From NCBI RefSeq assembly GCF_003334255.1, contig NZ_QOWU01000068.1: 22,032 nucleotides of DNA. One strand, written 5' to 3'. This document shows, in pieces, positions 20,588 to 20,693 of this stretch. A program made the translations under genes and the position numbers. The stretch comes from Escherichia coli (GTDB lineage Bacteria; Pseudomonadota; Gammaproteobacteria; Enterobacterales; Enterobacteriaceae). Under the pieces are notes generated by a model. The model ran no database searches. It was not told the origin of the DNA and saw only the letters and a list, made by a program, of their open reading frames with translations. Every line of letters begins with the position of its first letter. The stretch's first letter is position 1.

Positions 20588-20693
20588 CTTTAATCCTTGA
20601 AAGGTTAATTAAAAAAATGCAAATCTCTAAAGCCCGGTACGAATATCGCAACCGGGTATCATTTAACTTTAATTTCGACGCGTTAAAGCAGTA

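Follow-up and report, generated by a model that had tools for sequence, protein, structure and literature searches.

A conserved RNA hairpin after gfcA that probably helps to raise gfcA message above that of the export machinery in the Escherichia coli group 4 capsule operon

The spacer between gfcA and gfcB of the Escherichia coli group 4 capsule operon encoded an RNA hairpin that is real and conserved, the deciding support being comparative and not the folding of a single sequence. The hairpin was found, with covarying stem pairs, in every gfc-type locus examined; it kept close to the stop codon of gfcA, and it coincided with a step of about 10-fold in RNA abundance in EPEC. It probably helps the cell to make about ten times more message for GfcA than for the export machinery. 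We lean towards the view that the hairpin sets the point at which an abundant RNA of gfcA alone ends, uncoupling the level of gfcA from that of gfcB-gfcC-gfcD-gfcE-etp-etk. The best reading of its action is that of a leaky terminator and/or a barrier to exonucleases, with Rho adding polarity downstream.

The window (the whole stretch of DNA that was analysed, 22,032 nt) contained the chromosomal gfcABCDE-etp-etk locus of E. coli, the group 4 capsule operon, on the minus strand. The locus region was 100% identical to RefSeq E. coli genomes carrying gfcA and gfcB annotation and was found in 3,685 of 5,426 complete genomes. Features at the gfcA end of the operon were the following:

21441-21653: cspH, upstream of gfcA
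20694-20999, minus strand: gfcA, the upstream and more abundant cistron, encoding a small Thr-rich protein (assigned by identity to RefSeq genomes)
20588-20693: gfcA-gfcB spacer, 106 nt
20657-20693, minus strand: 5' part of the spacer, from the gfcA stop codon to the hairpin, 37 nt, variable
20633-20656, minus strand: conserved RNA hairpin (folding and comparison of loci)
20656-20651, minus strand: 5' arm of the hairpin, CCCGGU
20650, minus strand: bulged U
20649-20646 and 20642-20639, minus strand: inner helix, GCGA paired with UCGU
20645-20643, minus strand: triloop, UAU
20638-20633, minus strand: 3' arm of the hairpin, ACCGGG
20611-20632, minus strand: U-rich tail CUUUAGAGAUUUGCAUUUUUUU, directly 3' of the hairpin (read from the sequence)
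20598-20594, minus strand: Shine-Dalgarno sequence of gfcB, AAGGA
19943-20587, minus strand: gfcB, GTG start, first downstream cistron, encoding a YjbF-family lipoprotein (PF11102)
About 20433, minus strand: position equivalent, by coordinate mapping, to a premature 3' terminus listed for EPEC, 154 nt into gfcB

The genes after gfcB were gfcC, gfcD and gfcE, followed by the rest of the operon. With a gap of 37 nt, the hairpin lies beyond the stretch that a ribosome would cover while terminating on gfcA, and it ended 45 nt from the gfcB start codon, leaving the Shine-Dalgarno sequence untouched. A sigma-70 promoter scan of the spacer found no internal promoter.

Several further observations concern the upstream end of the locus. 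The mechanically called open reading frame of gfcA begins at an in-frame ATG further upstream, at 21017 (MNKGKV-MKHKL…); RefSeq starts the gene at the second ATG, 20999, for which the AAGGA Shine-Dalgarno sequence is better placed. The interval between gfcA and cspH (window 21000-21440) was free of IS1, so the gfc promoter region is intact in this strain; K-12 MG1655 has IS1D there (L001 9779-10546). Window positions 21783-22032 (plus strand) gave a sub-threshold, end-truncated Rfam match to the cspA thermoregulator (19.3 bits, E = 0.031), at the position of the cspG 5' UTR in K-12.

On the gfc mRNA the hairpin comprised 10 bp, including 7 G-C pairs, with a folding energy of -14.2 kcal/mol and z = -3.19 (RNAfold, 34-nt segment). 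The original prediction, made from the sequence alone, paired CCCGGU (20656-20651) with ACCGGG (20638-20633) in the 106-nt spacer and named folding energy as a check, and the pairing held. The 12-nt loop that it left open is closed by RNAfold with a 4-bp GCGA/UCGU helix, a UAU triloop and the bulged U at 20650. Taken as a single sequence the hairpin was of modest significance: 4 of 300 dinucleotide shuffles, treated in the same way, equalled the spacer's best 34-nt hairpin, and the fold of the whole spacer was no better than that of shuffles (z = -1.38). The motif CCCGG-N8-18-CCGGG occurred once in the 22-kb window, exactly at the hairpin coordinates, with 0.24 occurrences expected per window. 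Rfam covariance models run over 19800-22032 gave nothing overlapping 20588-20693, even at E <= 10. The sole competing fold seen, which places UGCGA...UUGCA next to the U7 run of the tail, was rejected at only -3.3 kcal/mol.

Loci for comparison were fetched through the GfcB protein and never through the hairpin: five from a genome scan, 12 from look-ups of GfcB homologues, and 80 from metagenomes. CCCGG-N12-14-CCGGG lay in the spacer of every gfc-type locus examined, 15 from genomes or read assemblies and 80 from metagenomes (95 in all), a metagenome set in which about 60 of the 80 loci were E. coli and from which the most distant relatives were left out. These loci spanned GfcB identities of 54-100% and 19-20 distinct hairpin variants. 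Hairpin-bearing taxa included: E. coli, Escherichia sp., E. albertii, Cedecea, two Citrobacter, and about ten lineages with GfcB identities of 54-66%.

RNAalifold recovered the stem from an alignment of 14 distinct sequences. By pair counting over the 14 distinct sequences, 92.8% of cells were paired, compared to 83.1 +/- 1.6% in shuffles and 28-48% in a control in which the partner was slid by 1-3 columns. Both sides had changed at four of nine pairs, with 13 double-change cells where shuffles had 3.3 +/- 1.4. The sixth pair was U-A, A-U, C-G or U-G depending on lineage and the seventh was G-C or A-U. The outer five pairs (CCCGG/CCGGG) never varied among the 19-20 variants and the flanking A...U was usually identical too, while the rest of the spacer could not be aligned between genera. 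In 14 of 19 variants the sense RNA was more stable than the antisense through G-U wobbles, which points to a role as RNA in the gfc message more than to a DNA operator.

Among 14 distinct E. coli-type spacers the 24-nt hairpin had no variable sites and the preceding 37 nt had about 12-19; in E. coli and its close relatives substitutions concentrated between the gfcA stop codon and the hairpin. Over lineages, the distance from the gfcA stop codon to the hairpin was 37-61 nt, whereas that from the hairpin to the gfcB start was 26-163 nt, and in long spacers (L004, L009 and L010) the hairpin stayed near gfcA. The steady distance to the gfcA stop codon, set against the variable distance to the gfcB start, indicates that the hairpin goes with the gfcA 3' end.

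Other structures were seen in some of these spacers. Several non-Escherichia gfc loci had an extra GC-rich hairpin right after the gfcA stop codon and before the CCCGG hairpin (e.g., CGCUGAGUGAUUUGCUCAGCG): L008 1090-1120, L012 1090-1125, L013 1087-1125, L016 1103-1127 and L020 about 1108-1132. E. coli was without it. In the 245-nt spacers of L009 (about 1140-1175) and L010 (about 1140-1177) a second hairpin with a U6 tail (AAAUAACGGGCUUACCGCCGUUAUUUUUU) stood about 30 nt before gfcB, and the CCCGG hairpin there had an A-rich, not a U-rich, tail. The metagenomic locus L038 (about 1-152) had an IS1 terminal inverted repeat (…GGTGATGCTGCCAACTTACTGATTTAGTGTA, reverse complement) joined 12 nt past the gfcA-stop position, and its gfcB start was changed from GTG to GTA; with this junction and the lost start, L038 is a decaying copy of the locus.

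The paralogous yjb operon also had a hairpin after its first gene. The yjbE-yjbF spacer of K-12 is 113 nt long and contained a perfect 10-bp hairpin, AUAACCACAC-UCCG-GUGUGGUUAU (fold z = -3.18). The yjbE-yjbF hairpins were located as follows:

L007 3220-3243: E. coli K-12
L011, about 1143-1170
L018, about 1140-1167

Like the gfc hairpin, that of yjbE-yjbF follows a Thr-rich first gene and precedes a gene for a YjbF-family lipoprotein, in a spacer of similar length (113 and 106 nt). The stem sequences (AUAACCACAC... in yjb) are unrelated, so the conservation between the two operons is analogous, or positional, and not homology. The compensatory base pairs that the original prediction sought across gfc and yjb loci were accordingly found in part, the stem covarying across gfc loci and the yjb paralogue having a different hairpin. 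Within the yjb type, E. coli, Paramixta and L018 shared the stem AUAACCACAC/GUGUGGUUAU exactly and differed in the loop. The stem was followed by U6 in Paramixta manurensis, whose locus adjoins pgi as yjb does, and in L018, and by UCUGCCCC in E. coli. The yjb-type hairpins of Paramixta and L018 are predicted canonical intrinsic terminators. A distant gammaproteobacterial MAG (GfcB identity 32%) had GCCGCC-UGCU-GGCGGC-U6 after its gfcA-like gene. Altogether, predicted canonical terminators occupied the position after the first gene in three relatives (Paramixta, L018 and the MAG), and the gfc and yjb loci examined repeatedly had a hairpin behind the first gene, a pattern drawn for the distant YjbF-family operons from the few loci L006, L011 and L018.

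The gfc hairpin itself resembles an intrinsic terminator in being GC-rich and short-looped and in lying on the transcribed strand; its E. coli tail lacks the U-tract (at least about 5 U in 8 nt) that such terminators have just 3' of the stem. The U-rich sequence originally proposed to follow the stem was U-rich overall (CUUUAGAGAUUUGCAUUUUUUU), but only 3 of its first 8 nt (CUUUAGAG) were U and its U7 run started 15 nt past the stem. This tail could be a weak U-tract or an AU-rich single strand of the RNase E type. A scan for consensus terminators returned 0 sites at the spacer. On a d'Aubenton-Carafa-type score, the values of which are rough, the E. coli gfc hairpin reached -36, its orthologues in E. 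albertii and L016 were borderline or better (+2.4 and +1.1), and the yjb-type hairpins of Paramixta (+16) and L018 (+20) and that of the distant MAG (+45) were higher. The tail was almost invariant within Escherichia. In orthologues the first 8 nt past the stem held 4.3 U on average (consensus UAUUU), and U-tails better than that of E. coli were present in E. albertii (UUUUGGAG), L101 (UAUUUUUC) and L103 (UAAUUUUC). Because of the tail with 3 of 8 U, the empty scan and the score of -36, it is unlikely that intrinsic termination alone gives a 10-fold drop in E. coli. Judged by these features, the hairpin behind the first gene would be a bona fide terminator at some of the gfc and yjb loci and a degenerate one in E. 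coli gfc.

RNA abundance along the operon was taken from DESeq2 baseMean values for EPEC E2348/69 in two conditions (PMC8550237 Table S2), counts that are means over wild type and hfq mutant. In sheet 1 these were: gfcA 3388.5, gfcB 646.6, gfcC 462.4, gfcD 1274.9, gfcE 763.0 and etp 271.8. In sheet 2 they were: gfcA 715.5, gfcB 147.5, gfcC 61.3, gfcD 102.8, gfcE 58.0 and etp 25.2 (PMC8550237). Divided here by gene length (306, 645, 747, 2097, 1140 and 447 nt, in the same order), the sheet 1 values per kb were 11,074 for gfcA, 1,002 for gfcB and 608-669 for gfcC to etp, and those of sheet 2 were 2,338, 229 and 49-82. The ratio of gfcA to gfcB RNA per kb was thus 11.0 and 10.2, and that of gfcA to the mean of gfcC to etp was about 18 and 39, in RNA-seq abundances that combine termination and differential decay inseparably. 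A step-down at gfcA-gfcB is what an intra-operon attenuator or a stabiliser of the upstream segment predicts.

The only 3' end retrieved for this end of the operon, among the termini listed, was a premature EPEC terminus named 'gfcB Internal' (NC_011601, minus strand, 1037199; the listed part of PMC10687069 Supplementary Data 5), and none of those termini fell at the hairpin. No hairpin precedes its equivalent at about 20433 (folding z = +0.95), and it may therefore be an end made through Rho or by a nuclease. By arithmetic on the EPEC counts, signal at the level of gfcA can reach over the first 155 nt of gfcB to at most about 15%, so that most of the drop would lie at or before the gfcB start, upstream of this terminus. 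The retrieved portion of the K-12 Term-seq supplements (Adams et al. 2021) had no entries for gfcA, gfcB, yjbE or yjbF, an absence that is uninformative because the gfc and yjb operons are poorly expressed in K-12. IS1 interrupts the gfc promoter region in that strain.

Small RNAs and Hfq also touch this operon in EPEC. In RIL-seq data, RprA formed 19 Hfq-dependent chimeras with RNA from around the gfcB start (1037316-1037368, window about 20550-20603), and Spot 42 (spf) formed chimeras with the gfcA 5' UTR (11) and with gfcC (72) (PMC8550237 Table S3). With these RprA and Spot 42 chimeras, the gfc operon may be under sRNA control. In one condition the hfq mutant had a log2 change of -1.49 for gfcA and of about -0.8 to -0.9 for the downstream genes (PMC8550237).

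Rho contributes to the polarity of the operon. In K-12, the downstream derepression that marks a Rho-dependent terminator has been reported: nusG and rho mutants and bicyclomycin derepressed gfcA, gfcB and gfcC, with larger effects on gfcB and gfcC (PMC9160355 Fig. S1). The log2 changes were 2.2 (gfcA), 4.2 (gfcB) and 3.1 (gfcC) with bicyclomycin, and 1.6, 3.2 and 5.8 with rho N340S (PMC9160355 Fig. S1). A gfcA RNA also gave the highest Rho ATPase rate among the templates tested (PMC9160355). In the window, the C/G ratio was 1.8-1.9 over 20748-20645, with 29-32% C in the last ~100 nt ending in the spacer, a moderate bias in RNA that is translated up to the stop codon. The gfcA end is C-rich and G-poor because ACN threonine codons close GfcA-family proteins in all lineages. 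From the larger derepression of gfcB and gfcC, part of the polarity from gfcA to gfcB and gfcC is Rho-dependent in K-12 and needs no hairpin, and this share fits the hairpin-less 3' end inside gfcB.

It is nevertheless rather unlikely that the polarity is purely Rho-dependent, with Rho stopping transcription in the spacer or early gfcB and the hairpin serving at most as a pause or trimming site. The K-12 derepression, the Rho ATPase result, the (ACN)n threonine codons ending gfcA with their C/G bias, and the EPEC terminus 154 nt into gfcB all fit such an explanation. It leaves unexplained, however, a covarying hairpin that holds a constant distance to the gfcA stop codon in all lineages and the Rho-independent terminators of canonical form predicted at the same position in relatives; moreover, most of the EPEC drop lies upstream of the gfcB terminus, with at most about 15% of the signal beyond, and the excess of gfcB and gfcC over gfcA under bicyclomycin is about 2-4-fold in K-12, compared to an EPEC step of 10-18-fold. 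Less probable still is an element of the downstream message, i.e., an RNase E-protective 5' stem-loop of a processed gfcB-etk mRNA, or part of the gfcB initiation region or an sRNA platform. As this explanation would have it, conservation within Escherichia is much higher between the hairpin and the gfcB start than between the gfcA stop codon and the hairpin, and the EPEC RprA chimeras cover the gfcB start region (1037316-1037368); yet these chimeras fall short of the hairpin, which lies 45 nt from the start codon, leaves the Shine-Dalgarno sequence untouched, varies far more in its distance to gfcB (26-163 nt) than to the gfcA stop codon (37-61 nt), and keeps with gfcA in the long spacers of L004, L009 and L010. 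Stabilised downstream RNA would also not predict downstream genes that are 10-fold scarcer.

The GC-rich stem bases beside the tail are among the most constrained positions of ordinary terminators too. The invariance of CCCGG/CCGGG and, usually, of the flanking A...U in 19-20 variants whose spacers are otherwise unalignable, and that of the yjb stem AUAACCACAC/GUGUGGUUAU across three loci with differing loops (E. coli, Paramixta and L018), can nonetheless be read as the mark of a sequence-specific site, either for an RNA-binding regulator or antiterminator (a regulated switch) or, as a DNA palindrome, for a dimeric factor. We regard such a site as quite improbable: the constraint on tail-proximal stem bases is the one general to terminators, an arm spacing of 12-14 nt and G-U wobbles argue against a rigid DNA operator, and the leader had no ops (up to 1 mismatch), no Rfam match was obtained, and no candidate factor is known. 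It is equally doubtful that a dedicated factor recognises the CCCGG/CCGGG cores of gfc and the AUAACCACAC/GUGUGGUUAU cores of yjb, so that the ratio of first protein to machinery (GfcA to GfcBCD, or YjbE to YjbFGH) would be actively regulated and not fixed. A functionless chance palindrome, for which the whole-spacer fold (z = -1.38, not significant) and a probability of ~20% that the motif arises somewhere in a 22-kb window could be adduced, is effectively refuted by the comparative data, i.e., the same position, the covariation and the lack of polymorphism within the species, and is next to impossible.

The preferred reading, in which the hairpin bounds an abundant gfcA RNA, would work as follows. 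Polymerase would transcribe gfcA, and the ribosome would halt 37 nt before the hairpin, leaving it to fold freely. A fraction of polymerases may then stop at the weak, U-containing tail by leaky intrinsic termination. RNA from those that read through would be exposed to Rho, loading on the C-rich, G-poor gfcA end and the untranslated spacer, and would also be open to endonuclease cleavage in the AU-rich tail. Exonucleases acting from the 3' end would trim back to the GC-clamped stem, protecting the gfcA segment, and the export machinery (gfcB-etk) would be expressed only from the remaining read-through transcripts. We infer that RNA 3' ends form at the hairpin, with termination and protection each presumably taking a share. 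The attenuator or stabiliser that was first proposed gains from the covariation, from the hairpins and terminators in relatives and from the ~11-fold EPEC excess of gfcA, and loses by the absence of canonical terminator features and by the share of Rho. As a functional idea it is plausible and has indirect support, with a putative mechanism that is probably mixed with Rho-dependent polarity.

To our knowledge, GfcA has no known function. If the operon makes about 10-fold more gfcA message, GfcA is likelier to have an abundant, structural or cargo role than to be one of the export machine's stoichiometric subunits. It has been speculated in print that GfcA, rich in Thr and Ser, carries an O-antigen modification and is exported by way of GfcD (PMC8592465). 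Transcript levels should not be taken as equal along the gfc operon when polar effects, complementation constructs or single-gene qRT-PCR are interpreted, and such gfc assays have been used in capsule work on Shigella sonnei and EPEC.

Overall, the gfc hairpin is an ordinary kind of operon-tuning element at a locus where it had not been described before; a search of the literature found no paper describing a gfcA-gfcB hairpin. A ribosome-mediated (leader-peptide) attenuator was rejected because the hairpin forms free of the ribosome, 37 nt past the stop codon, and its competing fold reaches only -3.3 kcal/mol. A REP or MITE repeat was rejected as well, a 131-nt query around the hairpin having matched 3,666 E. 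coli genomes at a median of 1 place each (highest 2).

Several known systems resemble the gfc arrangement in part. The original prediction had hairpins near the first gene as common in capsule operons; this was undocumented, and the precedent found follows wzc, the fourth gene (PMC3438125). In group 1 and Klebsiella cps operons, a stem-loop described as a 'Rho-independent attenuator' lies between wzc and the serotype-specific genes, together with JUMPStart/ops and RfaH (PMC3438125). Shared with gfc are a capsule-export operon and an internal hairpin parting gene blocks of different expression need. Unlike the cps attenuator, the gfc hairpin comes after the first gene, its sequence is unrelated, and a search of the minus strand between gfcA and cspH with up to 1 mismatch gave no match to ops (GGCGGTAG), with no JUMPStart in the leader. 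The Rho-dependent terminators of acquired or poorly translated operons (PMC9160355) have in common with gfc the sensitivity to Rho and NusG and an upstream end, here that of gfcA, with more C than G; those terminators need no conserved hairpin, whereas at gfc a hairpin is the conserved feature. In ABC-importer operons of Clostridia, internal terminators follow the genes for substrate-binding proteins (PMC9045158).

As in those importer operons, and as in the rplL-rpoB attenuator, the gfc stem-loop comes right after a small cistron wanted in excess, with downstream genes reached by read-through and a step-down in RNA; unlike in those partial terminators, the E. coli hairpin is without a canonical U-tract and termination there is putative. 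The rplL-rpoB attenuator of E. coli is an intercistronic partial terminator that sets operon stoichiometry. Intercistronic stabilisers that shield upstream mRNA from 3' exonucleases include the malE-malF REP, Rhodobacter pufBA and the processing of papBA. Unlike the malE-malF REP, the gfc hairpin is single-copy and not a repeated element, and its processing is putative. Like the stabiliser hairpins, it is a stable GC-rich stem that closes the abundant segment on its 3' side, is conserved as a structure and is followed by an AU-rich single strand that might be cleaved, and the RNA of its upstream cistron is far commoner than that downstream, gfcA exceeding gfcB 11 and 10 times per kb in EPEC.
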